This document shows, one piece after another, positions 12,169-37,595 of a DNA stretch of 64,000 bases. Source of the DNA: an uncultured Gammaproteobacteria bacterium (GTDB taxonomy: Bacteria > Pseudomonadota > Gammaproteobacteria > GCA-001735895); contig CAWIHJ010000015.1 of assembly GCA_963835795.1 (NCBI GenBank), forward strand, positions 57-64,056, read 5' to 3'. A model generated the notes under the pieces. The model was not told the DNA's origin, made no database searches, and saw nothing but the letters and a program-made list of their open reading frames with translations. Each line of letters begins with the position of its first letter. The stretch's first letter is position 1. The position numbers and the translations under genes were made by a program.

Positions 12169-14145
12169 ATGGACCAGGCGAGCGATCTCGATACTTTTCC
12201 CAAGCTGCTAGTCAGCCATGTGAAACTGCGCCCGCAAAAAGCGGCGATGCGCGAGAAAGACCTCGGAATCTGGCAATCCTGGAGCTGGGCCGAAGCCGCC
12301 AACGAGATTCGCAGTCTCGCCTGCGGACTGGCAGATCTCGGCCTCAAGCGCGGCGAAAAGCTCGCCATCATCGGTGACAATCGCCCGCGACTCTACTGGG
12401 CGATGACCGCAGCACAAGCGCTTGGCGCCATTCCGGTACCGCTTTACCAGGACGCGGTGGCCGACGAAATGGCTTTTGTGCTCGACAACGCCGATGTCAA
12501 AATTGCCCTTGCCGAAAACCAGGAACAGGTCGACAAGCTGCTCGAAATCCACGCGCGCTGCCCCAGCCTCGAACACATTATTTTCGACGACACCCGCGGT
12601 CTCGGATCCTACCAACACGATTTCCTGCACGACTTCGACCAGGTGCAGCGTGCCGGTGTTGAATTCGATCGCCAGCATGCAGGCTTCTACGACACGGAAG
12701 TCGCGGCCGGTTACGGCAAAGAAATATCGATCATGCTGTACACCTCGGGCACGACCGGCAAGCCCAAGGGCGTGATGCTGAGCAACGACAACGTGATCAT
12801 CACCGCGCGCAACGGCATCGTCCGTGAAGGCCTCGGCGCCGATGAAGAAGTACTCGCTTACCTGCCGATGGCCTGGGTGGGCGACAACCTGTTTTCCTAT
12901 GCACAATCCTATGTCGCCGGGTTTTGCGTCAGCTGTCCGGAAAGCGCTGCCACGGTGGCCAATGATCTGCGCGAGATTGGCCCTACCTATTATTTCGCCC
13001 CGCCGAGCATTTACGAAAACATGCTGACCCAGGTGATGATTCGCATGGAAGACGCAGCACCGATCAAGCGCCGCATGTTCCACTACTTCATGGAGCACGC
13101 GCGCCGGGTGGGTGTGCGCATTCTGAACCGCGAAACGGTCTCGCTCAAGGACTCGCTGATATACCAGCTGGGCAACATTCTCGTCTACGGACCCCTCAAG
13201 GACGTGCTCGGCCTGCGCCGCACGCACCTGGCCTACACCGCCGGCGAAGCCATCGGCCCGGATATCTTCGATTTCTATCGCTCGCTCGGCATCAACATCA
13301 AGCAACTCTACGGCCAGACCGAATGCATGGTGTTTATCTGCGTGCAACCGGACGGTGAGGTCTACGCCGATACCGTGGGCACGCCGGCCATCGATGTCGA
13401 AATCAGGATCGACGACAACGGCGAAATCATGTATCGCAGCCCCGGTGTGTTTCAGTCTTATTACAAGAACCCCGAATCCACCGCCAGCACCAAGACCGAA
13501 GACGGCTGGGTGCATACCGGCGATGCCGGTTTTTTCGACGACAGCAACGGCCATCTGAAGATCATCGATCGCGCCAAGGACGTCGGCAAACTGAACGACG
13601 GCACCCTGTTTGCGCCCAAGTACATCGAAAACAAGCTCAAGTTTTTCTCCTTCATCAAGGAAGCCGTGGTGTTCGGCAACGAGCGCGATTTCAGCACCGC
13701 GTTCATCAACATCGATCTCGACGCGGTCGGCAACTGGGCCGAACGCCGCAACCTCGCCTACTCCGGCTACATCGATCTCGCCGGTCAGGCGGCGGTCTAC
13801 GACTTGATCAAGGACTGCGTCGACAAGGTCAACCAGGATCTTTCGCAGGATTCGCGCCTCGCCAATTCGCAGATTCGACGCTTTCTGATCCTGCACAAGG
13901 AGCTCGACGCCGACGACGGCGAGCTGACCCGTACGCGCAAGGTACGCCGCAGTTTTGTCGGTGAACGCTTCGCCAAACTGGTCGACGCGCTCTACTCCGA
14001 GCAGCGCGAGTGTCACATTGAAACCGAGGTGACCTTCGAGGACGGGCGCACCGGGAAGCTTGCGGCCAACGTGCGCATCTGCGATGCCGAGGTGTATGCG
14101 CCAGACGCGCAACAATCCGCGCAACCGAGGGATGCCGCCGCATGA
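12169..14145 (+). CDS. AMP-dependent acyl-CoA synthetase/ligase (long-chain-fatty-acid-CoA ligase-like), first gene of the ligase-ABC-ligase module.
   Basis: 658-aa intact ORF with the AMP-binding motif LYTSGTTGKPKGVMLS and WVHTGDAGFFD...LKIIDRAKD. 4-nt overlap with the following ABC ATPase gene. Confidence 0.85.
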   Translation: MDQASDLDTFPKLLVSHVKLRPQKAAMREKDLGIWQSWSWAEAANEIRSLACGLADLGLKRGEKLAIIGDNRPRLYWAMTAAQALGAIPVPLYQDAVADEMAFVLDNADVKIALAENQEQVDKLLEIHARCPSLEHIIFDDTRGLGSYQHDFLHDFDQVQRAGVEFDRQHAGFYDTEVAAGYGKEISIMLYTSGTTGKPKGVMLSNDNVIITARNGIVREGLGADEEVLAYLPMAWVGDNLFSYAQSYVAGFCVSCPESAATVANDLREIGPTYYFAPPSIYENMLTQVMIRMEDAAPIKRRMFHYFMEHARRVGVRILNRETVSLKDSLIYQLGNILVYGPLKDVLGLRRTHLAYTAGEAIGPDIFDFYRSLGINIKQLYGQTECMVFICVQPDGEVYADTVGTPAIDVEIRIDDNGEIMYRSPGVFQSYYKNPESTASTKTEDGWVHTGDAGFFDDSNGHLKIIDRAKDVGKLNDGTLFAPKYIENKLKFFSFIKEAVVFGNERDFSTAFINIDLDAVGNWAERRNLAYSGYIDLAGQAAVYDLIKDCVDKVNQDLSQDSRLANSQIRRFLILHKELDADDGELTRTRKVRRSFVGERFAKLVDALYSEQRECHIETEVTFEDGRTGKLAANVRICDAEVYAPDAQQSAQPRDAAA

Positions 14146-14943
14146 GCGAACGCAACATCGGCGACGTCATTCTCAAGGTGGACAACATCAGCCTGTCGTT
14201 TGGCGTGATGAAAGTGCTCGACGACATCAGCTTCGACGTACGCCAGGGTGAAATTCGCTCGATCATCGGACCCAACGGCGCCGGCAAGAGCTCGATGCTG
14301 AACGTGCATCAACGGCTTTTATCATCCGCAGCAGGGCATCGATTACCTTCAAGGGCGAGACCCGCAAGCAGATGGCGCCGCACGCGCCGCAAGCCAGGGC
14401 ATCGCGCGCACCTTCCAGAACATCGCGCTGTTCAAGGGCATGAGCACGCTCGACAACATCATGACCGGGCGCAACCTGAAGATGAAGACCAACCTGTTCT
14501 GGCAGGCCCTGCACATCGGTCCGGCGCGCGCGCGAGGAACTGGAAAATCGCGAGGCGGCGGAACGATCATCGACTTTCTCGAGATCCAGGCGATCCGCAA
14601 AAAACCGGTCGGGCAAACTGCCCTACGGCCTGCAAAAACGCGTCGAACTCGGCCGCGCACTCGCCGCCGAGCCGGAACTGCTGTTGCTCGACGAGCCCAT
14701 GGCGGGGATGAACTCGGAGGAAAAGGAGGACATGTGCCGCTTCATCCTCGACGTCAACGACGAGTTCGGCACCACCATCGCGCTGATCGAGCACGACATG
14801 GGCGTGGTGATGGACCTGTCCGACCGGGTGCTGGTGCTCGACTACGGCAAGCAACTGGCCGACGACTACCCGGACGAGGTGCGCAGCAACCAGACGTCAT
14901 CGACGCCTATCTCGGAGTCCCGCATGAAGAGGTGACCGGCTAA
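14142..14943 (+). pseudogene. livG: LivG-type ABC transporter ATP-binding protein, with about seven frame changes.
   Basis: Conserved segments lie in alternating frames: GPNGAGKSSMLNV | INGFYHPQQG | SITFKGETRKQMAPHA | SQGIARTFQNIALF...HIGPAR | REELENREAAE | IIDFLEIQAIRKKPVG | KLPYGLQKRVELGRALAAEPELLLLDEPMAGMN...IEHDM... | DVIDAYLGVPHEEVTG*. Breaks are near 14307, 14338, 14385, 14530, 14565, 14612 and 14892. Confidence 0.85.
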
Positions 14944-19356: not shown

Positions 19357-20599
19357 ATGAGCGAATATTACGACGATCTCGAAACCCGCGGCAGCGATGA
19401 ACGCGCAGCCGCGCAACTGCAGGCGCTGCGCGCGCAACTGCACCACGCCCGGCAAAACACCACGGCCTATGCCGGTTTGCTCAAGGACATCGATATCGAC
19501 TCGATCACCGACTTCGACGCCTTCACCAGCGTGCCGATCACGCGCAAGTCCGAACTGATTACCTGCAGGGCGAGCAGCGCCCTTTCGGCGGCTACACGGC
19601 CCGCGACGGTGCGCAGTTGTCGCACGTCTTCGCGTCACCCGGCCCCATCTACGAGCCCGGTTTCGCGGTTGCCGATTTCTGGCGCTTTGCGCGTTCGCTC
19701 TACGCCAGCGGCTTTCGCCGGGGCGATCTGGTACACAATTGTTTCAGCTATCACTTCACGCCCGCCGGGCTGATGTTCGATGCGGCCGCACAGGCGCTCG
19801 GCTGTGCGATGATTCCGGCCGGCGTCGGCCAGACCGAATTGCAGGTGCAGACCATTGCCGATCTGTCGCCCAGCGCCTATGTCGGCACCCCGTCGTTTTT
19901 GAAAATCATCCTCGAACAGGCCGATGAACTCGGCAGCGACGTCAGCTCGATCGACAAGGCGATGGTCAGTGGCGAAGCCCTGCCGGCGCCATTGCGCGCG
20001 CAGCTTTGGCGAACGCGGCCTGCGCGTGCAACAGTGTTATGGCACCGCGGACCTCGGCCTGATCGCCTATGAATCCAGCGCGCTGGAAGGCTTGATCATC
20101 GACGAGGGCGTTTATGTCGAAATCGTGCGCCCCGGTACCGGCGAAACCGTTGGCGAGGGCGAAGTCGGCGAAGTGGTGGTCACCAACCTCGATGCCAATT
20201 ACCCGTTGATTCGCTTTGCCACCGGTGACCTGTCGGCTTACCTGCCGGGCATCAGCCCCTGCGGACGCACTAACCTGCGCATTCGCGGCTGGATGGGGCG
20301 CGCCGATCAGACCGCCAAGGTGCGCGGCATGTTCATCCATCCCGAGCAGGTCGACAAGGTGGTCAAGCGCCACGCGCGAGATAGGGCGCGCGCGCCTGGT
20401 GATCGACTGGGTCGAGCAAACCGACCAGTTGACCTTGCAATGCGAGTGCGAAACAACCGATGCCGAACTGCAGGCGGCCATCGCCGACAGCATGCGGTCG
20501 ATTTGCAAACTGCGCGCCGAAGTCGAAATCGTGACACCGGGGAGCCTGCCCAATGACGGCAAGGTAATCGACGACATTCGTCAATACGACACGAAATAA
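19357..20599 (+). pseudogene. Phenylacetate-CoA ligase-like (PaaK family) adenylate-forming enzyme with three frame breaks (~19560, ~20008, ~20372).
   Basis: ORFs 19357.., 19617.., 19924.. and 20216.. concatenate: ...VPITRKSELI | YLQGEQRPFGGYTARDGAQLSHVFASPGPIYEP...PSFLKIIL... | FGERGLRVQQCYGTADLGLIAYE...IRGWMGRADQTAKVRGMFIHPEQV... | EIGRARLVIDW... Confidence 0.8.
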
Positions 20600-23227: not shown

Positions 23228-23773
23228 TCACGGACTGGTGAAGTACTTGATGGACCCGTCGTAATGACGCGTAGCCACGTAGACGACCCCGTCGTATGAC
23301 GTCGACAGAGCGGTCGTCGTGCGCGCAGCGAGTTCCTTGCGAAATGCTTTTTCCAGGGAACTGCCGGCGCTGTCAGCGTAACTGATCGGCGTACTGTGCA
23401 ACAGGCCCCAGCCATCCAGCGCACCGACGCGACGCACGGTATTGTCGAGCACTTTCAGCATGATTTGCTTGCGTCCGTCGGCCTCCAGGTCGACAAAGTC
23501 ATCCATGGGTTCGGCGCCCGGGTAGATGCGGAAAAAAGTCGACAATACGTTGGAATCGGCATCGTAGGTGATGGACGTCAGGCACAGATCGGCCTCCTCG
23601 GCATTGCTGTTTTTCACCAGCTTGTTGCACTTGGCATCCTCGTAAACGCGAAACAGGAACAGGTCGAAGGCACTCGGTGGGGTTTGCATCATGCGCTCGA
23701 TCTGCGGGCCCGGGCCGGCCAACCCCTGCGTAGCGGTTAACAAGCCCAGAATCAATAATGTACAACGCAACAT
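23228..23773 (-). CDS. Hypothetical secreted protein (181 aa).
   Basis: ORF 23228..23839(-). The internal start MLRCTLLILGLLTATQGLAGP looks like a signal peptide. I recognise no family. Confidence 0.5.
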   Translation of the reverse strand: MLRCTLLILGLLTATQGLAGPGPQIERMMQTPPSAFDLFLFRVYEDAKCNKLVKNSNAEEADLCLTSITYDADSNVLSTFFRIYPGAEPMDDFVDLEADGRKQIMLKVLDNTVRRVGALDGWGLLHSTPISYADSAGSSLEKAFRKELAARTTTALSTSYDGVVYVATRHYDGSIKYFTSP

Positions 23774-23948
23774 GTCGCTCCCCTTTACCGATTGATCGAG
23801 ACCCCAGTATACGCGAATCAAATCCAGTCCCCGCTGCACAGGACCGTCATGAAATCGTCACAACAAGGTCAGACGGTCATCAAGCTTGCTGCGCCGCCGT
23901 GGTGCAAACTTTATCCAACATCAATGAACCCACCACGAGGCAAATGAA

Positions 23949-24188
23949 ATGAACAGCAAAAGCATGCACATCGACCACAGCACCGACCCCGGTGGTACTG
24001 AAAGCTCGGCTTCGATCTTCGCCATACTCGCCAACCTGGTCAATGCAAGGTTTGGCCGTAGCGGGCTTGAAAAAGCGCAGGATTACTACCGTTGCAAGCA
24101 ACAACGCCAGCAACCCCGGCACGACATTCTCGATAGCCTGCCGCTGGAAGCGAAACTGCGCCTCGGCATGCATCGCTGGATCGATTGA
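23949..24188 (+). CDS. Hypothetical small protein (79 aa).
   Basis: The ORF shows host-like third-position GC bias and codon usage, has GAGG about 9 nt upstream of the ATG, and is followed by two hairpins. The overlapping minus-strand ORF 23880..24173 was judged less likely to be coding. Confidence 0.4.
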   Translation: MNSKSMHIDHSTDPGGTESSASIFAILANLVNARFGRSGLEKAQDYYRCKQQRQQPRHDILDSLPLEAKLRLGMHRWID

Positions 24189-24191
24189 AGC

Positions 24192-24252
24192 GACTGCGAT
24201 ATACCGTACACGATCGCAGTCACCCCGGCCCGGTTGCCGGGGTCTTTAATTT
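24192..24252 (+). terminator. Tandem hairpins. The second (CCCCGGC-ccggtt-GCCGGGG then TCTTTAATTT) looks rho-independent.
   Basis: Stem GACTGCGAT/ATCGCAGTC at 24192-24221, then a GC stem at 24223-24242 followed by a T-rich run. Confidence 0.5.
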
Positions 24253-24634
24253 CGTACTGGTGAAGAGAGGCCAACCGCAGCCGCTGTCGAGACCGGTAAC
24301 TAACTCGCCTATCTCACTGATTTACCTGGCGAGTGGGTCGGAAAGACACCGGGGTTGCGGGGTATATATAAAATGGTATTACTTACCGCAGTCGTTGCAA
24401 ACCCAGCGCTCCCCGTGCCTGTGCAAGAAAGCGGCCGCATATACATTTAGTCAGCGGCATTGTTGCCTTGAATCGCTGCGCCGAGCGCCGACTCCGTGCC
24501 GAAACCGTTTTTAAGGCCGGAAAGCCCGTAAAACCGCAGTATAGACCAGTAAATTACCCTATATGGGGGATTCGAAAGTTTAGGGAATACCACAGAATAG
24601 TGCCTAATTATTGCCAGCAATGTGTACTCATCAA

Positions 24635-25339
24635 ATGAATATCAAGCGCTACCCCTCTCTATTTCGCATCGTGTTACCGATCGCCGCTTTCATGCTTACC
24701 GGCGCCACGCAGGCATCCACCATGATTGGCGGCGTAGCAGTCGACTCCGCAGGCAGCAGTACCATGGTTGGGTCCACGCAGTCCGTTACCCATATTCCCG
24801 ATGCGATCAAATACTACATTCCCCTGAGCGCCACCCAACAAGGCACTTACGGCGTTGCCGGCACACCAGCACCCTGTGGTAACGGGTTCCCCGGCACTTT
24901 CGGCGGGGCTGGCACCTGTGCCGACAGTGGATCCGGGTTTGGCTACCTGGATTCCAGTGCCCTGGCGATGAACATCTACTTTGACTTGAGCGGACAGCCA
25001 GCCAGTCAGTCGGCCGAGCTGTCGTTCCTCTTCGACGATCTTGACCTGATCGACAAGAACGATCCGGTCGGCTTTTTCGAGTCGATTTCGCTGTCCTTCT
25101 GGAACTGGGATACCAACACCAATTCTTTCGACGGCACTCCCGTGAACGTGGCCGGAACGATCACAACCGCAGGCGCATCGCCCGATCCCGTAATCGACGC
25201 GGTGGACGACAACCTGATCACCTGGGACCTGGATCTGCTGGCGCTCGGCGCATTGAACGCGAGTGCACAGGCTCAGAACGGCTTCTGGATTCAGCTCGGC
25301 TTCGGTTCCAGATACGTACAAACGATGACGGGCAATTAA
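24635..25339 (+). CDS. Secreted protein (signal peptide, Gly/Thr/Asp-rich). It ends at an in-frame TAA ahead of its apparent PEP-CTERM tail.
   Basis: ORF 24611..25339. Start MNIKRYPSLFRIVLPIAAFMLTGATQAST at 24635. Confidence 0.6.
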   Translation: MNIKRYPSLFRIVLPIAAFMLTGATQASTMIGGVAVDSAGSSTMVGSTQSVTHIPDAIKYYIPLSATQQGTYGVAGTPAPCGNGFPGTFGGAGTCADSGSGFGYLDSSALAMNIYFDLSGQPASQSAELSFLFDDLDLIDKNDPVGFFESISLSFWNWDTNTNSFDGTPVNVAGTITTAGASPDPVIDAVDDNLITWDLDLLALGALNASAQAQNGFWIQLGFGSRYVQTMTGN

Positions 25340-25504
25340 ACTCGACAATCACGGAAACCCGAACCCAACACGGCACAAACACGCCCTGAGTATTTAGCCG
25401 CCAAATTGACCGTTTCGCCGGTACCCGTGCCCGCCGCCGTCTGGCTGTTCGGCACCGCCCTGATCGGCTTTGTCGGCATGTCGCGCAGAACAAAAATTTC
25501 CTGA
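25340..25504 (+). other. Stranded PEP-CTERM-type sorting signal, in the same frame as the upstream ORF.
   Basis: Continuing the 24635 frame past TAA (25337-25339) gives TRQSRKPEPNTAQTRPEYLAAKLTVSPVPVPAAVWLFGTALIGFVGMSRRTKIS*. This has the VPxP motif, a hydrophobic helix and an Arg-rich end. Confidence 0.6.
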
Positions 25505-25521
25505 CCCTTAACCAGGCAGAC

Positions 25522-25555
25522 AAAAAAAACCTCGCCAATCGGCGAGGTTTTTTTT
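25522..25555. terminator. Bidirectional rho-independent terminator (A8-CCTCGCC-aatc-GGCGAGG-T8).
   Basis: Perfect 7-bp GC stem flanked by an A-run and a T-run, lying between convergent genes. Confidence 0.75.
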
Positions 25556-25612
25556 GCCTGCCAGTTTGCATCCACGATTGCCAGCCCAGTATCCGGTGGT
25601 GTTTGCTTCGAT

Positions 25613-26371: not shown

Positions 26372-26430
26372 GTCTTATCTCCTCGGTAAACCCACGTATC
26401 AAAAACAGGCCGCCGGAAAAGGCAGCCCGA

Positions 26431-27217
26431 TCATTCGAATTCGGGCTTGCGCTTGTCGAAGAATGCCTGGATTCCTTCGCGCCCGTCGGGCGAGGCCGCG
26501 CAGCGTGACAACAGCTGCCCTTCGAGTTCCATCTGCGCCTCGAGATCGTTGCCGGCGCTCGCCAGCAACAGCTTGCGCACGTAGGCGTGCGACAGCCGCG
26601 CACCGTCGGCGAGTTCTGCCGCCAGGCGATCGGTTTCCGCCTGCAGCTCGGCATCCGCCACCACCCGGGTAACAATGCCGATTTCACAGGCCTCGGCGGC
26701 ACTCAGCGTTCGGTTGCTCAACATCAGTTCCTGCGCCCGACGCAGACCAACCAGCCGCGGCAGGTAATAGCTGGAGGCGCCATCCGGGCACAGACCGGCG
26801 CGGGTATAGGCCATGGTGAAGCTGGCCGACTCGGCGGCGAGCACGATATCGCCGATCAGCGAGAAACTGAAACCACCACCTGCGGCGACCCCGTTTACCG
26901 CGACAATCAATAGCGCCTGCATGCGCGACAGGCTCGTGATCGCGGCGTGAAAGTCGTCGGCGAGCGCCTGCGCCGCGTCACCGATGGCATCGCCGTGTGC
27001 CAGCATTTCCCGGAGATCGCCACCGGCGCAGAAGAATCGGCCCTCGGGCGCTGAGCACCACTACCTTGATCTGCGGGTCGTCATCGCATTGCCGCGCCGC
27101 CCGTTTCAACTCGCTGGCCGTTTGGCTGTTCAGGCCATTGGCCGCCTCGGGCCGGTGCAGGGTAATGCGCGCGATCGCGCCCTGCTGTTCAAAAATAATG
27201 CATTCGAATTCGTTCAT
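26431..27217 (-). pseudogene. Enoyl-CoA hydratase/isomerase family protein with one +1 break (~27047, in a G3/C3 run).
   Basis: ORFs 26978..27268(-) and 26431..27006(-) join: MNEFECIIFEQQGAIARITLHRPEAANGL...VVVLSA | GRFFCAGGDLREMLAHG...VNGVAAGGGFSF... Confidence 0.8.
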
Positions 27218-27298
27218 GGCTGTGGCACGCTTACCGCATCGTTGAATTTTGAATAGTGCATAATACACAACCCCTCACGCCTGTTACAGGAGCGAATC

Positions 27299-27589
27299 AT
27301 GGCTGCATTTCTAATCGTCGATACGGTGATCGAAAACGCCGAAGAATACGAAAAGTACAAGGCGCTGGCCAAACCCATCGCGGAGAAATACGGCGGTGTG
27401 TACCGCGTGCGCGGCGGTGACATGGATGTGCGCGAAACCGACCTGTGGTCACCAACGCGCATGGTGATCATCGAGTTCCCCGACATGAAGTCCGCTCGCG
27501 CCTTCGCCGATTCAGAAGAATATGCCCCGGTGAAACCGTTGCGCCGTGACAATGCGCGCTGCACGCTGGTGATCCTCGAGGGCGTGTAA
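27299..27589 (+). CDS. DUF1330 domain protein.
   Basis: 96-aa ORF MAAFLIVDTVIENAEEYEKYKALAKPIAEKYGG...VIIEFPDMKSARAFADSEEY, matching my recollection of the DUF1330 pattern. Confidence 0.75.
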   Translation: MAAFLIVDTVIENAEEYEKYKALAKPIAEKYGGVYRVRGGDMDVRETDLWSPTRMVIIEFPDMKSARAFADSEEYAPVKPLRRDNARCTLVILEGV

Positions 27590-27847
27590 GCGCAGGTAGT
27601 TCACCGTAACCGACTTCAGCTCAACTCCATGCGCCGAATTGCTGCCGGGTGCAAATGTTCTAACTGTCAATGTTCGCAGGCGTCGCGGCGCGCGAACGCG
27701 GTTTGCAGGATTTGCAGCGCATCGCCGTGCGACACCAGCAACAGGCAGCTACCGGAATAGCGCTGTTCGAGGTCGATAATCAATTCGGTGACCCCTGCCA
27801 TCACCTGGTTGGGGCTTTCCGTCTGCCGATAATCACTGTCGGCATTG
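27551..27847 (+). repeat. Left copy of the ~297-bp imperfect direct repeat (3' end of DUF1330 + spacer + 3' end of the histidine phosphatase).
   Basis: Manual ungapped alignment to 31182..31478 (offset 3631) gives about 22 mismatches and no indels. Confidence 0.85.
27616..27847 (-). pseudogene. Truncated duplicate of the histidine phosphatase C-terminus (about 77 codons, with an acquired TGA).
   Basis: The minus strand reads ...NADSDYRQTESPNQVMAGVTELIIDLEQRYSGSCLLLVSHGDALQILQTAFARRDACEH*QLEHLHPAAIRRMELS*. The full gene reads ...NADSDYRQTESPNQVMARVTELIIELEQRYSATCLLLISHGDALQILQTAFARRDVREHRQIEHLHTAEIRRMDLS*. Confidence 0.8.
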
Positions 27848-27850
27848 GGG

Positions 27851-27900
27851 AGTTCCCCGGGACACAAACCCTCCTAGTTCCCCGGGACACACACCCTCCT
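27851..27900 (+). repeat. 2 x 25-bp tandem repeat AGTTCCCCGGGACAC(A/C)ACCCTCCT at the left junction of the insertion.
   Basis: Direct reading; one mismatch between the units. Confidence 0.8.
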
Positions 27901-28319
27901 GGACACGGATTCCAAAGGTTCTGAAATACGAAAATTAACTTAGGAATAACATTTGAGTGTGTGTCTCATGCCTGGCAAGCGCCACGGGCCGAATGCCATT
28001 CCACGGGGTGCTTGGCGCGTTATGCCTTTCCGCTTACGCCCGCGCTGCGCAATATTCCGGCACAGGGGCGATTTCATCTGAGCGTATTTCTCGATGCCCG
28101 TAAGCGATCGAATTAATTGCTATACGAGCCAGTCGGGCAACACGCGCCGGGGGTAAAATACCGTCCGTGACAGAAACATCCCGGGCCGAAATGAAATTTA
28201 AATAAACGGTTTATTGCGCATGTCGCTTGTGAATACTGCTCTATACTCAATTGATTATCATAACTATTTCAGCGAAAACGGTATCGACTGATTCTCGCAT
28301 AGAGCATTTCCACCTTTAT

Positions 28320-30722
28320 ATGGCAAAACTGGGTAATATTTTTTTTGGTAGAACACTAAATCAGTTTCTCGAGTGTCAGGACCCGGGAAGCCGTAAGGGC
28401 ATGGCTCTGGCTAATAAAATCAGGGAGGCGGCCGGCGATAACCTGGAAAAGATACTGGAATCGATTACCCAGGCAGGCGACCCGCATAGCGAGGTGCTGA
28501 AAAACATCTGTCGCGAGTCGGTCGAGGGTTTTTCGGAAGAATATTTTCTGGATGTGCTGTCACACGAAGAGACCGTATTTCGTGCCGCCGCCAGTGACAT
28601 TCTGTCGCATAAAGCCACGGTTGATCCTTCCAAACTGTTCAAGCGTCTACACGATCGCAAAGTTTCCCCGGCCGAGGTTATCGCAGTACTCGATGCACAA
28701 AAGCATCTGTTAAAGCCGGAAGACATTATCAACCACTCGTTAAAACTGGAAGCGGATTACGCGATAGACCTGTTAAAACTGGTCGAAGGTAGCGAGCAGC
28801 CTGTCGATTTATCGAAATTGAGCTTTCAGCTCGACAAGGCCCAAAGCCCGGCTTACAAGATTAACCTGTTGAGTTATTTCGGTAGTGTTAACCAGCCCGG
28901 GATCCCGTTGATAGTAGTTCGCTTTTTAGATGATTCCAACAAGGTCGTCGTTCTCGAAGCGCTCAAGACCCTGGATCGAATGAAAATCGATTTCGATGTG
29001 TCGGTGCTGCTTCCCTATACCGAATCGATGTCAGGTGTTGAGCTACAGCTGGTGCTCAAGATTATCGCCAAGCAGGCCGACGCCAGCCTGGTACCCCATC
29101 TTTCGGGTTACCTGACTTCGAAGTCGAGCGAACTGAACGATTTTTTTGCACGCATTATCGTTGCCAACGCAGACCGGGATACCCTTGAAGAATTTCTCAA
29201 GCGCCTGAGTATCGAAGACGACTGGACCCTGCAGCAAGTGATCGCTTGCTTACAAAAATTTTCCAGTGAAACCCTGTCCGAAGTCGCGCGTGAACTGACC
29301 GACCATGAAGAGGAAGTCGTGCGTAACGCCGCGCAGATGCTGGTAGTCAATCTGATTGGTAAAGAAGATCTCGATAAAATAGAGGAATTTGCGCTCAATG
29401 AAAATTGGCAGGTCCGCGAACGTGCGATCCAGTCACTGTCCAAGTCGACGAACCGAAGTGCACTGACCATCATCAAGAAAATGGTCGAGACCTACCCCGA
29501 TGATTACTTGCTGGCTTTGCGCGCGGTCAAGCGGCTTGGCTTTGGCAAAGGCCTCGAAATCGCTTTCCAGGGTCTAAAAAATTCAGAGGCCAACGTACAA
29601 CGCGCCTCGCTGGAGACGATCGAGGCGATCACCACCGAAAAGCACGCCACCAACGTACGCGACAATTTACTGTGGAGCCTGCCGATGCTGACCACGGAAA
29701 TGCGGGAATTCGCGAAGATGGTGATGTCACAGATCACCAAGGATTTCAATTTGCCCGATATTGAGATTTACGCAGATTCAAACACCGGTTCCGGCGTGGT
29801 TGATGTTTCTCTGTTTACTGGCGGAACCGGCACGATTGTCAGGCCGGATGAGAGCATGTCACCGCTGGACAGGCTCAGCCCCGGCGAGGTTTGGATGAAC
29901 CGTTATCACATCAAGGAAGAGATTGGCCGGGGTGCAATGGGGCGCGTCATGCTGGTCGAAGACGACATGGTCGATGAGTTATTAATATTAAAATTCATGC
30001 TGCCCGCGCTTACCCTGGACCAGCAGTCGACCGAACGCTTCAAGCGTGAAGTCAAGTACGCCCGCAAGATCAGCCATCGCAACGTGATTCGTGTGCACGA
30101 TATTCTGTTAATGGACGATGTCTGCGCGATTTCGATGGAGTATTTCAGGAGCCGCGGACTTGAGACGGTTCTGGCAAAGTTCAAGAGTTTCGAGACCCTC
30201 GAAGGACTCAAGATCATGTACCAGATCGCCAGTGGCATGGCGGCGGCGCACGAACAGGAAGTCATACATCGTGACCTGAAACCCAGCAACATCCTGATCG
30301 ATGACAACTGGCTGGTGAAGATCGTGGACTTTGGTATTGCCTCGGCCGGCACCGCTTCGGAAGCGACCCTGACCCAAACGGGTTCGATAATTGGCAGCCC
30401 GGCCTACCTGGCACCCGAGCGTGCCGAGGGCAAAGATGCCGACGAGCGCAGCGATATCTACTCGTTGGGGGTTATCGCGTATTACATTTTCAGCGGTCAG
30501 TTGCCGTACAGCGGCAAGCCGATGGAAGTGCTGTCGAAACATCGCGAGGGGAACGCGCCTCCGATTGTCAAGATAAAGGATGGCGCCTCGCCCGAGGTTT
30601 CCCGCCTGATTGTAAAAATGATGGCAGTTGATCCGACCGCACGCCCGCAGACGATGGTAGCGGTACGCGACGAAGTGGCGGAACTCGTCAAGTTGTTCAC
30701 ACTGCCCGATACAATCTCGTAA
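28320..30722 (+). CDS. HEAT/ARM-like repeat protein with a C-terminal Hanks-type Ser/Thr protein kinase domain (about 800 aa).
   Basis: ORF 28251..30722. The first ATG (MAKLGNIFFG) is at 28320. Kinase motifs: IGRGAMGRV, LILKF (catalytic Lys), IHRDLKPSNILI, VDFGIA, GSPAYLAPE. The N-terminal ~540 aa is helical and repeat-like, with segments such as DHEEEVVRNAAQMLV and NENWQVRERAIQSL. GC content is visibly lower than the flanks. Confidence 0.85.
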   Translation: MAKLGNIFFGRTLNQFLECQDPGSRKGMALANKIREAAGDNLEKILESITQAGDPHSEVLKNICRESVEGFSEEYFLDVLSHEETVFRAAASDILSHKATVDPSKLFKRLHDRKVSPAEVIAVLDAQKHLLKPEDIINHSLKLEADYAIDLLKLVEGSEQPVDLSKLSFQLDKAQSPAYKINLLSYFGSVNQPGIPLIVVRFLDDSNKVVVLEALKTLDRMKIDFDVSVLLPYTESMSGVELQLVLKIIAKQADASLVPHLSGYLTSKSSELNDFFARIIVANADRDTLEEFLKRLSIEDDWTLQQVIACLQKFSSETLSEVARELTDHEEEVVRNAAQMLVVNLIGKEDLDKIEEFALNENWQVRERAIQSLSKSTNRSALTIIKKMVETYPDDYLLALRAVKRLGFGKGLEIAFQGLKNSEANVQRASLETIEAITTEKHATNVRDNLLWSLPMLTTEMREFAKMVMSQITKDFNLPDIEIYADSNTGSGVVDVSLFTGGTGTIVRPDESMSPLDRLSPGEVWMNRYHIKEEIGRGAMGRVMLVEDDMVDELLILKFMLPALTLDQQSTERFKREVKYARKISHRNVIRVHDILLMDDVCAISMEYFRSRGLETVLAKFKSFETLEGLKIMYQIASGMAAAHEQEVIHRDLKPSNILIDDNWLVKIVDFGIASAGTASEATLTQTGSIIGSPAYLAPERAEGKDADERSDIYSLGVIAYYIFSGQLPYSGKPMEVLSKHREGNAPPIVKIKDGASPEVSRLIVKMMAVDPTARPQTMVAVRDEVAELVKLFTLPDTIS

Positions 30723-30753
30723 GGCCTCCTCGAACAGAGGTTGTGCGACGATT

Positions 30754-30905
30754 TCAGCCCAGCGATTGCAGCGCAGTCAGTGCGATCAGGTTATAGACAT
30801 CTTCCGTGTTACAGCCGCGTGACAGGTCGTTGGCAGGGCGATGGCTAACTCCGTCACCAGTGTGGGGTCGCAGCTCGTCACGCCCTTACCGGCACTATCC
30901 AACCA
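30754..30905 (-). pseudogene. Orphan GC-rich C-terminal gene fragment (unknown family) with an internal frame break.
   Basis: The minus strand reads ...GKGVTSCDPTLVTELAIALP | ANDLSRGCNTEDVYNLIALTALQSLG*. There is no upstream coding continuation. I could not place the family. Confidence 0.3.
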
Positions 30906-31040
30906 AAAAATAAGGGGATTAAATTTTAATCCGCCCCTTTTTCGTCCCCTTTTTCTTGCGCGGAATAAATTCACCAGATTCAATTACTCATTTAGCAGTT
31001 ACTCCGGATCATCTAACTGAGTGCTTGTGTGAAGAGGACA

Positions 31041-31098
31041 ACCCGGGCCTGAGAGCGATCGTTTTCAAATATAGAAACGATCGCTCTACGGCCCGGGT
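31041..31098. repeat. Long inverted repeat/hairpin with 24-nt arms (22/24 paired) and a 10-nt loop.
   Basis: ACCCGGGCCTGAGAGCGATCGTTT-tcaaatatag-AAACGATCGCTCTACGGCCCGGGT. No T-run follows. Confidence 0.75.
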
Positions 31099-31181
31099 AG
31101 CTTACGGTTCAAGTTGCACCGTTTCACCGAAATTCAGGCGTACCAGCCCGATTTAATCGAATAAGGATTCCTCCCACGGAT

Positions 31182-31478
31182 ATTGCACGCTGCACGCTGG
31201 TGATCCTCGACGGTGGATAAGCGCAGGTAGTTCACCGTAACCGACTTCAGCTCAAATCCATGCGCCGAATTTCTGCCGTGTGCAAATGTTCTATCTGTCG
31301 ATGTTCGCGAACGTCGCGGCGCGCGAACGCGGTTTGCAGGATTTGCAGCGCATCGCCGTGCGAGATCAGCAACAGGCAAGTAGCGGAATAGCGCTGTTCG
31401 AGCTCGATAATCAATTCGGTGACCCGCGCCATCACCTGGTTGGGGCTTTCCGTCTGCCGATAATCACTGTCGGCATTG
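31182..31478 (+). repeat. Right copy of the ~297-bp imperfect direct repeat.
   Basis: See the left copy. It contains a 3' DUF1330 remnant (...IARCTLVILDGG*) and the genuine 3' end of the phosphatase gene. Confidence 0.85.
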
Positions 31479-33103: not shown

Positions 33104-33943
33104 ATGCTGCGTATCGAAAACCTCGAAAAAAGGTATCAGACCGGAGACCTGGCGCTCAACAGCGTCAACCTGGAAGTCCCCAGGGGCCAGGTCATGGCGC
33201 TGATCGGTCCTTCGGGTGCGGGCAAGAGCACGTTGATTCGCTGCGTCAATCGACTCGTCGAGCCCACCGGCGGCAAGATTTTTCTCGGCGATCTGGAACT
33301 GGCCCACCTCGGTTCAGGCGAATTGCGCCGTGCACGGCGGCGTATGGGCATGATCTTTCAGGAATACGCCCTGGTGGAACGCCTGAGCGTAATGGAAAAC
33401 GTGCTGTCCGGAAGGTTGGGTTACGTCGGCTTCTGGCGCAGTTACTTTCGCAAGTTTCCACAATCCGATATCGACGAGGCATTCAACCTGTTGCAACGCG
33501 TCGGTCTCGACCACATGGTCGACAAGCGCGCCGATGAACTGTCGGGCGGTCAGCGACAACGCGTGGGTATCTGCCGCGCGCTGATCCAGAACCCGGACTT
33601 GCTATTGGTCGACGAGCCTACCGCGAGCCTCGATCCGAAGACCTCGCGGCAGATCATGCGTCTGATCTGTGAACTCTGCGAAGAACGGCAACTCGCCGCA
33701 ATCATCAACATCCACGACGTACTGCTGGCACAGATGTTCGCGCGCCGCATCGTCGGACTGCAGCTCGGCGAGATCGTCTACGATGGCCCGCCCGACCAGC
33801 TCACGGCGGATGTGCTGACCCAGATCTACGGTGAAGAAGACTGGGAAGCCACCATCGAGGCAAGCAAAGATCTCGATGAAGACGAAGCCGACGTGATCGC
33901 GGTAGTGGAAAAAGTGATTCACAAAACGGGGGCGAAGGATTGA
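33104..33943 (+). CDS. phnC: Phosphonate ABC transporter ATP-binding protein.
   Basis: 279-aa intact ORF with [38 protein letters not shown]. Confidence 0.88.
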
Positions 33944-34744
33944 ATCAAACCACTAAACCCCGTACCTGGAAACGGCCCCCCTTCATTACTAACCCGACGC
34001 TGCGCTGGGGTTTGTGGCTGGGTCTCGCGATATACCTGGCGCTGGCTTTCGGAACCCTGGAAATCAACTGGGGTCGGGTCGGGGAAGGCATTCTGCGCAG
34101 CGAGCGCTTTATCGCCGCCTTCTTCCCGCCGGATTTCACCTCGCGCTGGGAATCGATCGAAGACGGCATCCTGGAAAGCCTGTGGATGACGGTTACCTCC
34201 ACGGTGGTCGGCATCCTGCTGTCGATTCCGGTTGGCCTCGGCGCCGCACGCAATCTGGCGCTGGCGCCCGGTTTACCTGTTCTGCCGCGGCATCGTCGCG
34301 GTGTCGCGCACCTTTCCCGAAATCATCCTGGCGATCTTTTTCGTCAAGCTGTTCGGCTTCGGCCCGTTTGCGGGTTTTCTCGCACTCTCCGTCGGCACCG
34401 TCGGCTTTTACGGCAAGCTGCTGGCCGAAGACATCGAGGACATGGACCCGGTGCAGGCCGAGGCGGTCAAGTCGGTCGGCGCCAGCTGGTTCCAGTGGCT
34501 GAACTACGCGGTGCAGCCGCAGGTCATGCCGCGCATGATCGGGCTGGGCCTGTATCGGTTCGACATCAACTTTCGCGAATCGGCGGTGGTCGGCATCGTC
34601 GGCGGCGGCGGCATCGGCGCTACCCTGCTGACTTCGTTCGATCGCTACGAGTTCGATTCGGCCGCGGCTATCCTGCTGGTCATCATCGGCATCGTCATGG
34701 CGGTGGAATACAGCTCCGGTTACATCCGCCGGTGGGTGCAGTAA
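33940..34744 (+). pseudogene. phnE: Phosphonate ABC transporter permease PhnE (copy 1) with one +1 break (~34260).
   Basis: ORF 33940.. and ORF 34232..34744 join: ...PVGLGAARNLA | RPVYLFCRGIVAVSRTFPEIILAIFFVKLFGFGPFAG... Confidence 0.8.
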
Positions 34745-35558: not shown

Positions 35559-35572
35559 GCCGCCGTAGTCTC

Positions 35573-36416
35573 GTGGCAATCGACCCACAGCTCGAAGCCA
35601 ACTACAACATCGTAGCCTCGCGTGACGGCGTCGATGAATTGATGCAACGCTGGTCTGCGCAAAGTGCGGAGCAACGTGCCGCAGCCGATGTCAGCCTGGA
35701 CTGTATATACGGCGTCGGAGCGCGCGAGCGCATCGACGTGTTTCGTTGCGGCGTAACCGACGCGCCCTTGTACGCCTACATTCATGGTGGCTACTGGCAA
35801 CGCGGTGACAAATCGCTGTACAGTTTCATCACGGCGCCTTTTCTCGCCGCAGGAATCGACGTCGCCATCATCGGCTACCCGTTGTGTCCGCAGGTGTCGA
35901 TGAGCGAACTGTTGAACTCGATGCGCCAGGCCATCGTCTGTTTGTACCTGAACGCCGATCACCTCGGCGTAAACCGCGAGCGCATCAACCTGTCCGGGCA
36001 TTCCGCGGGTGGACACCTGACGGCGATGGCCGCTTGCACTGACTGGCCAGGCTTCGGCGGCAGGGCTGCCCGCAGACCTGCTAAAAACGGCAATCCCGTT
36101 CAGCGGCCTGTATGACCTGGAACCCTGCTGCACACCAGTATCAGCGAGGCGCTGCGGTTAACCGCTGACGAAATCCTGCAGCTGAGCCCGATTCACTTGC
36201 AACCGACGAGCCAGATGCCGCTGCTCACCATCATCGGAGGTGGCGAAACTCGCGGAGTTTTTTCGCCAGACCGACGCCTTGCACGCGGCCTGGAGCCAGC
36301 ATCTGCCAGCCCTCGACCGGCATGTCGAAGCCGATGTCGATCACCTCGACCTGATCGACCGGCTGGCCACTGCCGACAGCGCGATTTTCCAACGCATCGC
36401 CGGCTGGTTGCGCTAG
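35573..36416 (+). pseudogene. Alpha/beta hydrolase (esterase/arylformamidase-like) with three frame breaks (~36068, ~36125, ~36250).
   Basis: From the GTG at 35573: VAIDPQLEANYN...YIHGGYWQRGDKS...NLSGHSAGGHL (nucleophile elbow GHSAG)... | LPADLLKTAIPFSGLYDLEP | LLHTSISEALRLTADEILQLSP...IIGGGET | EFFRQTDALHAAW...IAGWLR*. Confidence 0.7.
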
Positions 36417-36455
36417 CCTGCATTTCTCTTACTGGTTTTGACACATCCGCGTCAC

Positions 36456-37595
36456 TTATAGAGCGTTCTGGTGGCGCTCGTAGCGATCCATGAATTCCGG
36501 CGCCAGCGCGCGTAATCGCTGCTGATCGATCCGCCCCGACCGGGTCAGGTAGTCGTAGGCAAATTCGATAGCAGGCTTGTTCATGCGCTCGGCGAAGCCG
36601 TCGTACCAGCGCGCGGACTGGTTGGCGGCATCGACGATCTTGCGCACGATGGGCTGGCGCTGTTGCTGAAACGACTGCAGCGCATCGTCCAGGCGATTTG
36701 ACGCGCACAGGGCTTTTACCAGCGCGATCGAATCCTCGAAAGCGAGACGCGTACCCGAACCGATCGAGAAGTGCGCGGTATGCGCGGCATCGCCGAGCAG
36801 GACACGATTGCCAGACACCCAGTTGTCGCACCACAGGCGTGGAAAACGGCGCCAGATGGAATGATTGGTGAGCAGTGTCGCGCCATCGAGGGTATCCGCA
36901 AACAACAGGGAACAACGCGCTGCACTCTGGCGCTCACTCATTTCCGCAAAGCCCTGTGCAGCAAAACTGACCGGATCGCATTCGACGATAAAGGTGCTCA
37001 TTTGCGGCGTATAACGATAGTGATGGGCATTCAATACGCTTCGCTCATTGCGAATAAAGGTTTGCGTCAGCGTAGCGAAGGAGCGCGTTGCACCAAACCA
37101 GGCAAAGTGATTATCAAAATAGTCGAGCGAGGGCTGGAACGCGGCCTCGTCGCTGCGCCGCACCAGCGAATGCAATCCATCCGCGCCGATGATCAGGTCG
37201 GCCTGGTTGGCATCGAGCGATTCGAGCGCCTGCTGGAAACGCAGCTCAACACCGAGCCCGCGCGCCCGCTGTTGCAGGAGTTGCAACATTTGCAGGCGCC
37301 CAATGGCGGCAAAGCCGATGCCGTCGAGGGTGATTTCTGCACCCGCGAGCGCCAGGGTCATGTTGCGCCAACGCTCCATCAGCGGCGTGATCAGGGCGTG
37401 GGTATCGGGGTCGTCGGCCTGCAGAAAATCGAGCGCCTGGTCGGAAAACACCACGCCAAAGCCGAAGGTGGCATCGGCCGCATTTTGCTCGGTTACGCGC
37501 ACCTGGGTTGCCGGTAAGTGCGTTTTCAACAAGATCGCCGTATACAGCCCGGCCGGGCCACCCCCGACAATATCGACCCGCTTCAACGGCAGCAT
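36456..37595 (-). CDS. FAD-dependent aromatic-ring monooxygenase-like oxidoreductase.
   Basis: ORF 36456..37697(-). Likely start MLPLKRVDIVGGGPAGLY at 37595. Motifs: GADGLHSLVR and LLGDAAHTAHFSIGSGTRLAFEDS. Confidence 0.8.
   Translation of the reverse strand: MLPLKRVDIVGGGPAGLYTAILLKTHLPATQVRVTEQNAADATFGFGVVFSDQALDFLQADDPDTHALITPLMERWRNMTLALAGAEITLDGIGFAAIGRLQMLQLLQQRARGLGVELRFQQALESLDANQADLIIGADGLHSLVRRSDEAAFQPSLDYFDNHFAWFGATRSFATLTQTFIRNERSVLNAHHYRYTPQMSTFIVECDPVSFAAQGFAEMSERQSAARCSLLFADTLDGATLLTNHSIWRRFPRLWCDNWVSGNRVLLGDAAHTAHFSIGSGTRLAFEDSIALVKALCASNRLDDALQSFQQQRQPIVRKIVDAANQSARWYDGFAERMNKPAIEFAYDYLTRSGRIDQQRLRALAPEFMDRYERHQNAL

Follow-up and report, generated by a model that had tools for sequence, protein, structure and literature searches.

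A kinase-locus fragment between duplicated copies of a convergent gene junction: a rearrangement scar lacking recognisable mobile-element machinery in an uncultured gammaproteobacterium

Introduction

How does a conserved chromosomal gene come to lie between two others, leaving both of them whole, when nothing resembling a mobile element accompanies it? The question is raised by a segment of the 64,000-nucleotide stretch of contig CAWIHJ010000015.1 analysed here (the window), which comes from an uncultured gammaproteobacterium. Within it, between a DUF1330 gene and a histidine phosphatase gene, a HEAT-repeat/Hanks-type Ser/Thr kinase gene lies in low-GC DNA bracketed by imperfect direct repeats. 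An initial annotation, made by reading the sequence without database searches, had proposed two origins for this segment: a Campbell-type single crossover of a circular molecule, or integration of an island that regenerated the 3′ ends of its target genes. We find that 3,334 bp were inserted between tail-to-tail DUF1330 and phosphatase genes 26 bp apart, with duplication of 297 bp, and that the structure is a lineage-specific rearrangement scar without recognisable mobile-element machinery rather than a genomic island. The analysis concerns a single example, present in one copy on one metagenome-derived contig.

Results

The insert is bracketed by two copies of a convergent gene junction

The two repeat copies, R1 and R2 (Table 1), align without gaps at an offset of 3631, with 275 of 297 positions identical (92.6%). 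The computed alignment agrees with the manual estimate of the initial annotation (~92-93% identity, ~22 mismatches), giving exactly 22 mismatches. The boundaries are sharp, identity dropping to 30-33% in the 50 bp beyond either edge. The weak homology that had been thought to continue into the 25-bp tandem units on the left amounts to 16 of 53 positions (30%), which is chance level. A repeat search of 20-36 kb returned the R1/R2 pair as the sole long direct repeat, and blastn found no third copy in the 64-kb window.

Coordinates and Pfam matches bear out the content proposed for the repeat, namely the last DUF1330 codons (13 plus the stop in the left copy, 27551-27589), the spacer and the last 77 phosphatase codons. 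They also bear out its asymmetry: the left copy joins an intact DUF1330 gene to a phosphatase fragment carrying a TGA at 27667-27669, and the right copy joins a DUF1330 relic to an intact phosphatase gene. Both target genes are thus intact after the event, and each has left a dead partial copy. Orthologues of the DUF1330 protein encoded in syntenic loci share 77-89% identity with it, and the phosphatase has full-length homologues at 45-70% identity with conserved synteny with PhnD/PhnC.

We compared the phosphatase parts codon by codon with 119 homologues. In the left fragment the TGA replaces an invariant arginine (R183stop), and R141G, T190P and E192A also fall on residues invariant in all 119, whereas the derived changes in the live copy are conservative (D148E, V161I, A179V, L185I). 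The dead DUF1330 tail has kept its conserved ARCTL core, and its differences are mostly at third positions and in variable residues. With the 22 repeat differences polarised against four empty-site outgroups, six changes were derived in the left copy and seven in the right, nine being ambiguous; the split is even in the DUF1330 part as well as in the phosphatase part. Neither copy could be assigned to a donor, no database sequence being closer than ~75% to R1 or R2.

Identical runs of 52, 51 and 38 bp persist between the two copies. Given the minimal pairing length of RecA, runs of this size would still allow homologous excision, and loss of the segment by RecA recombination between the repeats is still possible. 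An intact phosphatase gene would be restored only by crossovers to the left of ~27641-27669, a span of about one third of the repeat.

Table 1. Features of the insertion and its flanks, in window coordinates.
Feature	Position	Strand	Description and evidence
DUF1330 gene, intact, 96 aa	27299-27589	+	Pfam PF07045, E=1.9e-27, full length
R1, left repeat copy	27551-27847		DUF1330 tail, 26-bp spacer and phosphatase 3′ fragment; architecture as in the empty sites of L083-L086
His_Phos_1 pseudogene fragment, last 77 codons and stop	27616-27847	-	Pfam match to His_Phos_1 positions 111-159
Filler A, orphan, 110 bp, 49% GC	27848-27957		Two tandem 25-bp units at 27851-27900
hyp222 relic, last 49 codons	27958-28104	+	tblastn, 65% identity to residues 174-222 of L029 hyp222; blastn, 78% over 141 nt
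Upstream intergenic region carried with the kinase gene	28105-28319	+	Placed as in native loci, between hyp222 relic and kinase start; two of these loci match it partially by blastn
HEAT-repeat/Hanks-type Ser/Thr kinase gene, intact, 800 aa	28320-30722	+	ATG at 28320; Pfam Pkinase, E=8.5e-50 (1-259/263); HEAT_2
PTA_PTB relic, last 28 codons and stop	30754-30840	-	82-92% amino-acid identity to native-locus PTA_PTB C-termini
Filler C, orphan, 341 bp, 48% GC	30841-31181		Terminator-like hairpin and palindrome
R2, right repeat copy	31182-31478		DUF1330 tail relic (31182-31220), 26-bp spacer and functional phosphatase 3′ end
Histidine phosphatase gene (His_Phos_1), intact, 199 aa	31247-31846	-	Pfam PF00300, E=9.9e-25

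The insert is a mosaic built around a kinase-locus fragment

Between the repeats, the insert (27848-31181) is a mosaic with four junctions, in which fillers A and C enclose a core derived from the kinase locus. Besides the whole kinase gene and the region upstream of it, the core (27958-30840; 2,883 bp) contains truncated 3′ portions of the gene's two native neighbours: hyp222, a 222-aa protein that precedes the kinase, and PTA_PTB, which is convergent with it in native loci. Homology stops abruptly at both outer core edges (at 30840/30841 on the PTA_PTB side). The intergenic region carried with the kinase gene is presumed to be its native promoter and 5′ untranslated region, the promoter role being suggested by its position.

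The kinase is the sole open reading frame (ORF) of the insert with a Pfam match, in line with the earlier description of one intact gene among relics and non-coding DNA. It is collinear over 800 aa with homologues of 798-801 aa at 78-80% identity, has no frameshift, and has apparently been retained in functional form at its new chromosomal address. A search with the hyp222 relic peptide gave no candidates, an uninformative result.

Neither filler matched anything in the window, in 88 related loci, or among plasmids, phages and viral contigs. Filler C (fold z-score -3.5) contains a terminator-like, bidirectional hairpin at 30914-30937 followed by a T run (to 30942 with the run included). It also contains a near-perfect palindrome whose two 24-nt arms, at 31041-31064 and 31075-31098, are 92% complementary and enclose a 10-nt loop. 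Hairpin and palindrome recur neither in the window nor in any collection searched, and Rfam at a permissive threshold gave a single match, a chance microRNA-hairpin hit on the palindrome. The insert has no inverted terminal repeats and no ends like those of miniature inverted-repeat transposable elements.

The core derives from a locus with a fixed chromosomal context

More than 120 homologues of the kinase, with identities of 57-80%, occur in uncultured Gammaproteobacteria of marine and sediment origin. Assemblies in NCBI, ENA, Logan and JGI supplied 54 kinase loci together with their flanks. The native order is ETFQO, CHMI, APH (-), hydantoinase A (HydA), hyp222, kinase, PTA_PTB (-), PntA and PntB, and the kinase keeps this context in all 54 loci, wherever flank is present, across the whole span of 57-80% identity. 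DUF1330, phosphatase and PhnD lie near the kinase in none of the 54, and the other native neighbours (HydA, PntAB and others) are absent from the whole window. Because relics of the neighbours flank the kinase and its native context is fixed, we conclude that the insert core was part of a conserved locus of the chromosome and is not mobile-element cargo. The earlier view of the cargo as foreign island DNA is therefore set aside: what was inserted is a clade-conserved hyp222-kinase-PTA_PTB fragment with truncated native neighbours. The protein database holds no second kinase copy above 80% identity beyond this genome's own kinase.

PADLOC profiles for PD-T4-6 match residues 522-791 of the kinase (E=3e-73), and the mad6, MkoA and PglW profiles match too. 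We rejected a PD-T4-6-type defence gene as its identity, given that the similarity is generic to Hanks kinases and that the context is metabolic, fixed and unlike a defence island in 54/54 loci.

The target site is empty in the closest relatives

Synteny with related genomes is strong in both flanks, one being PhnC-PhnD-phosphatase and the other DUF1330-enoyl-CoA hydratase-SDR, and the window is collinear with one related locus, L083, on both sides of the insert. In the closest relatives the DUF1330 stop faces the phosphatase stop across 8-198 bp. Such empty-site alleles, looked for as a check on the insertion, were seen in L083/L084 (phosphatase 67% identical to that of the window; 198-bp spacer), L085 (69%; 8-bp spacer) and L086/L088 (68%; 137-bp spacer). 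Both repeat copies have the layout of these empty sites, so the lineage descends from an ancestor in which the site was empty, with a 26-bp spacer, and it was into this site that the kinase fragment was inserted. The claim of an insertion into a formerly uninterrupted convergent junction, with that junction duplicated, thus stands, and the empty site in the closest relatives makes the insertion lineage-specific. The nearest non-self phosphatase is 70% identical, and the phosphatase homologue search turned up no conspecific allele, filled or empty.

What lies between phosphatase and DUF1330 changes with distance from the window's lineage, and more distant relatives have alternative occupants at this site. 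In L003, L004, L005, L009, L010 and L014 (phosphatase 57-63%) it holds a two-gene module encoding a coiled-coil MotB/ZorB-like protein and a MotA/ExbB-like protein, and in L002 and L006 (61-63%) a Na/Pi cotransporter. No direct repeats surround these occupants, and there is thus no evidence of a site-specific hotspot mechanism.

The two-gene module (L005:10845-14047) is a stator-like pair whose long coiled coil sits on the MotB-like partner. That protein, of 767-1062 aa, starts with a membrane segment at its N-terminus and runs through a long, repetitive coiled coil to a C-terminus resembling MotB/ZorB (PADLOC ZorB match, E=5e-25); its partner is the MotA/ExbB-like protein, of 320 aa. L002 retains a relic of the module's first gene only, beside the Na/Pi cotransporter.

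Part of the low GC content is intrinsic to the kinase

The insert has a GC content of 51.7%, compared with 59.9% for the window. It is the minimum of all 3.3-kb windows, ~3.4 standard deviations under the mean, and so is indeed the low-GC stretch that it had been taken for. The compositional shift is real, but the kinase by its own nature accounts for about a third of it, and only a deficit at third codon positions (GC3) of ~0.07-0.10 is anomalous. In relatives, too, the kinase lies ~3 GC points under its flanks, through its amino-acid composition (lower GC at first and second codon positions, GC1 and GC2). GC3 of the window's kinase is 0.64, against ~0.70-0.80 in surrounding genes, whereas the difference between kinase and neighbours in 42 relatives is -0.008 +/- 0.029, with one of the 42 equalling the deficit seen here. 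This is suggestive, not decisive, of a kinase fragment from a related, lower-GC lineage rather than from the genome's own native locus. Nucleotide identity to the nearest homologue is 78-79% for the kinase and 73-81% for the flanking genes; the kinase being as distant from its nearest homologues as the flanking genes are from theirs, no sampled lineage is the donor.

The phosphatase gene has a GC3 of 0.64 as well, and import of that gene was considered and rejected: its GC3 lies under that of its neighbours in most relatives, a family trait.

The locus lacks mobile-element machinery

We found no integrase, transposase, phage or conjugation gene in 17-42 kb, and the neighbouring ORFs of 17-38 kb are metabolic or transport genes. 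The 64 kb contain no tRNA or transfer-messenger RNA and no Rfam family, and the locus has no att site or mobile-element genes. No dif-like 28-bp site was seen at the junctions at <=3 mismatches to the E. coli-type consensus of the gammaproteobacterial dif core, a search that could miss a divergent dif. The insert has no similarity to plasmids, phages or viral contigs, apart from plasmid-database matches that fall exclusively on the PTA_PTB relic. Pfam, tRNA and Rfam searches thus uphold the initial annotation on the lack of an integrase, transposase or tRNA. They give no support to island integration that regenerates 3′ ends, for which the locus offers neither an integrase nor an att or tRNA site nor any mobile-element genes. 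Features that the locus shares with islands are target-derived flanking repeats (297 bp, 92.6%) and empty sites in relatives; those that it lacks are a recombinase, a tRNA/att site and patchy accessory cargo (the kinase locus is conserved in 54/54). By the features that define them, the locus does not qualify as a genomic island, prophage remnant, Xer-dependent element (IMEX) or defence island.

Other features of the neighbourhood

Four genes near the insertion are split across reading frames relative to their full-length L002/L005 orthologues: the enoyl-CoA hydratase (26431-27268, -; shift near 27041 in a CCC/GGG run), PhnE (33940-34741, +), an AMP-binding ligase (19357-20590, +; spread over three frames) and a BD-FAE/Abhydrolase_3 hydrolase (35570-36410, +). 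They are either genuine pseudogenes, reflecting genome erosion, or long-read assembly indel errors.

An Aminotran_4 gene (class IV aminotransferase, ~300 aa) lies between the enoyl-CoA hydratase and SDR genes in L083:9980-10894, L005:15048-16148 and L002 (~13851-14770). In the window these two genes are 60 bp apart (26372-26430), indicating a clean deletion of Aminotran_4 in this lineage. Between the hydrolase and a FAD-binding monooxygenase, L083 carries universal stress protein and Na/alanine symporter genes (L083:764-3427) that are absent at window ~36415-36524. A second variable spot, 23451-25608 (~2.2 kb; GC somewhat lower, at 53-57%), does not align with the otherwise collinear L083, which has a gene for a 315-aa hypothetical protein there; the ORFs at 23228-23839 (-) and 24611-25339 (+) in this spot have no Pfam match. 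The L003 contig ends in a 2.3-kb inverted self-duplication (L003:3726-5993; 89% identity) with two head-to-head DUF1330 copies, probably an assembly fold-back artefact of a public metagenome-assembled genome (MAG).

Discussion

Which event would leave a duplicated junction around a mosaic of this kind? The account that we favour, tentatively, is that the arrangement may have arisen in one recombinase-independent duplicative event at a replication fork. A single replication-associated duplicative insertion is the most economical explanation because the target is duplicated, the insert is a mosaic, its core comes from a fixed locus, a recombinase is lacking and relatives have empty sites. Template switching gives complex insertions accompanied by small duplications of the site that receives them (Gu et al. 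2016, PMC5120786), and interchromatid integration of donor DNA gives duplications (Johnston et al. 2013, PMC3784515). The locus has the pattern looked for in template switching, a 297-bp recipient duplication together with a multi-template mosaic with abrupt homology breaks.

Such an event can be pictured in two equivalent versions. In one, by fork stalling and template switching or microhomology-mediated break-induced replication (FoSTeS/MMBIR), a nascent strand would have left its template at 27847, been extended in turn on two or three ectopic ones (filler A, the kinase fragment and filler C) and returned to the target 297 bp behind the position that it had left. In the other, an incoming fragment would have been joined illegitimately to two sister chromatids at a 297-bp offset. 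The repeat copies would afterwards have diverged by 7.4%, with radical changes and a stop codon accumulating in the non-functional halves and conservative changes in the functional ones. The source of the kinase fragment could be the native locus of this same genome or, to judge by the low GC3, an unsampled lower-GC related gammaproteobacterium.

Several points weigh against this account. Template switching from the genome's own native locus predicts a second kinase copy; as the protein database has none above 80% identity, this copy must have been lost, be unassembled or never have existed. The mechanism is documented mainly in eukaryotes and laboratory E. coli. The even split of derived changes and the several conservative replacements in the functional copies look somewhat more like two once-functional, diverged alleles than like in-place decay; the pattern also fits in-place decay of a fast-evolving gene, and the numbers are too small to decide. 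Finally, this is one example on one metagenome-derived contig.

The same allele-like pattern is a point for Campbell-type integration, which we regard as a serious, though less likely, rival. A 3.63-kb circle with a diverged copy of the junction (R′), filler A, the kinase fragment and filler C would have entered the empty site by single crossover. On this proposal of the initial annotation the evidence is mixed. A single crossover would leave exactly this geometry, with the repeat layout equal to the empty site, and the size of the duplication is of the right order: in E. coli, circles that entered by single crossover left the homologous segment duplicated over 109-950 bp (Amarir-Bouhram et al. 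2011, PMC3240628). The 51-52-bp identical runs would permit RecA pairing, and an even derived split with conservative or synonymous changes in the functional halves fits alleles that diverged while functional. Unexplained, however, is the chimeric circle itself, which must hold a target fragment between orphans C and A next to the kinase fragment, and for which no replicon, vector or mobile-element sequence accounts; the searches turned up no related circle, plasmid or phage. A donor only 7% diverged in the repeat should also share the recipient's GC3, leaving the deficit of the kinase without explanation, and no donor is identifiable because no relative with a repeat above 75% identity is known. 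The data do not separate Campbell integration from a one-step duplicative illegitimate insertion.

Allele-like differences would also be expected from a two-step history, which we consider improbable. The mosaic would first have been inserted illegitimately at phosphatase codon 123, inactivating the gene, and DNA from a related strain would later have repaired it: a donor carrying the DUF1330 tail, the spacer and the phosphatase 3′ end onward would have crossed over by homology in the 5′ part of the phosphatase gene and been joined illegitimately to filler C. The intact phosphatase and the DUF1330 relic, as a passenger, are thereby accounted for, and transformation and conjugation are established to give rise to homology-facilitated illegitimate recombination (PMC3240628). 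The price is two rare events plus selection for phosphatase function; moreover, there is no independent sign of import to the right of R2, where the low GC3 of the phosphatase is a family trait.

An integrase-type island or prophage remnant, targeted to the phosphatase (or DUF1330) gene at its 3′ end, having brought a replacement for that end and later lost its recombinase and mobile-element genes by deletion, is highly improbable. It would explain repeats of target-gene 3′ ends, regenerated genes, empty sites and lower GC, but the absence of integrase, transposase, tRNA, phage and conjugation genes from 17-42 kb, a cargo consisting of a conserved housekeeping-context locus fragment with truncated native neighbours, and the lack of any plasmid, phage or viral-contig similarity or dif-like site speak against it.

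There is also very little chance of an assembly artefact, either a chimeric contig or a free circle threaded into the chromosome path through the 51-52-bp identical runs, even though the sequence is apparently from a MAG whose closest relatives are all MAG or metagenome contigs, several frameshifted genes make the consensus quality of the window uncertain and identical runs inside the repeat could merge paths in a low-k assembly graph: the R|A and C|R junctions and the truncated relics need a real molecule, misassembly cannot truncate genes with orphan fillers, 22 substitutions with zero indels between the repeats are unlike typical consensus errors, and the flanks are perfectly collinear with L083.

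The locus offers a clean natural case of a conserved non-mobile chromosomal gene relocated, or imported from a relative, without mobile-element machinery, and its target duplication, at 297 bp, is unusually long and keeps both target genes intact. It also calls for caution in island prediction, in which low GC, direct repeats and empty sites would normally be read as an island; here the cargo is a housekeeping-context fragment. Were the rest of the genome at hand, the locus could help to separate template switching from Campbell integration of circularised chromosomal DNA as ways in which genes are relocated in uncultured marine Gammaproteobacteria. Further, there is a slim chance that the repeat-insert-repeat unit acts as a recombinase-free shuttle, RecA excising a 3.63-kb circle with one hybrid repeat and this circle, or linear DNA, entering empty-site relatives by single crossover at the DUF1330/phosphatase junction. 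If so, a core signalling gene would spread between strains on 297 bp of portable target homology, and the 7% repeat divergence and the foreign-looking GC3 of the kinase would be traces of transfer.

Comparison with known systems

At icd, e14 and phage 21 integrate in a way that both duplicates and replaces the 3′ end of the protein-coding gene they target, and these elements encode an integrase and phage genes. The locus described here resembles them in its imperfect repeats of a target 3′ end, with the gene intact and a displaced dead copy at the other end. Unlike them, it has no integrase, its repeat spans two convergent gene ends, and its cargo is a housekeeping-context kinase fragment.

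Closer in form are Campbell single-crossover products such as those of suicide plasmids (Amarir-Bouhram et al. 2011, PMC3240628), in which a contiguous target is directly duplicated; 297 bp falls within the 109-950 bp range, and the product is likewise reversible by recombination between the repeats. In contrast to suicide-plasmid integration, the insert contains a chromosomal fragment and orphan fillers with no plasmid or vector sequence, and its repeat copies differ by 7.4%. FoSTeS/MMBIR (PMC5120786) offers a parallel for a non-adjacent segment set down as a mosaic of templated pieces, with the recipient site duplicated and no site-specific enzyme involved, although its record consists of human rearrangements and laboratory E. 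coli, not of natural bacterial genomes at this scale. In transformation-induced merodiploidy (Johnston et al. 2013, PMC3784515), as in our second version of the event, a short donor fragment bridges offset sister chromatids, so that a tandem duplication arises and donor DNA lies at the new joint; there, however, pairing is homologous, with repeated insertion sequence (IS) fragments, and 100-900 kb are duplicated, whereas here the duplication is 297 bp and the joints are illegitimate. Set beside these systems, the locus behaves as the product of Campbell integration or duplicative insertion would; it adds an instance to a known class of rearrangement and is not a new molecular system.

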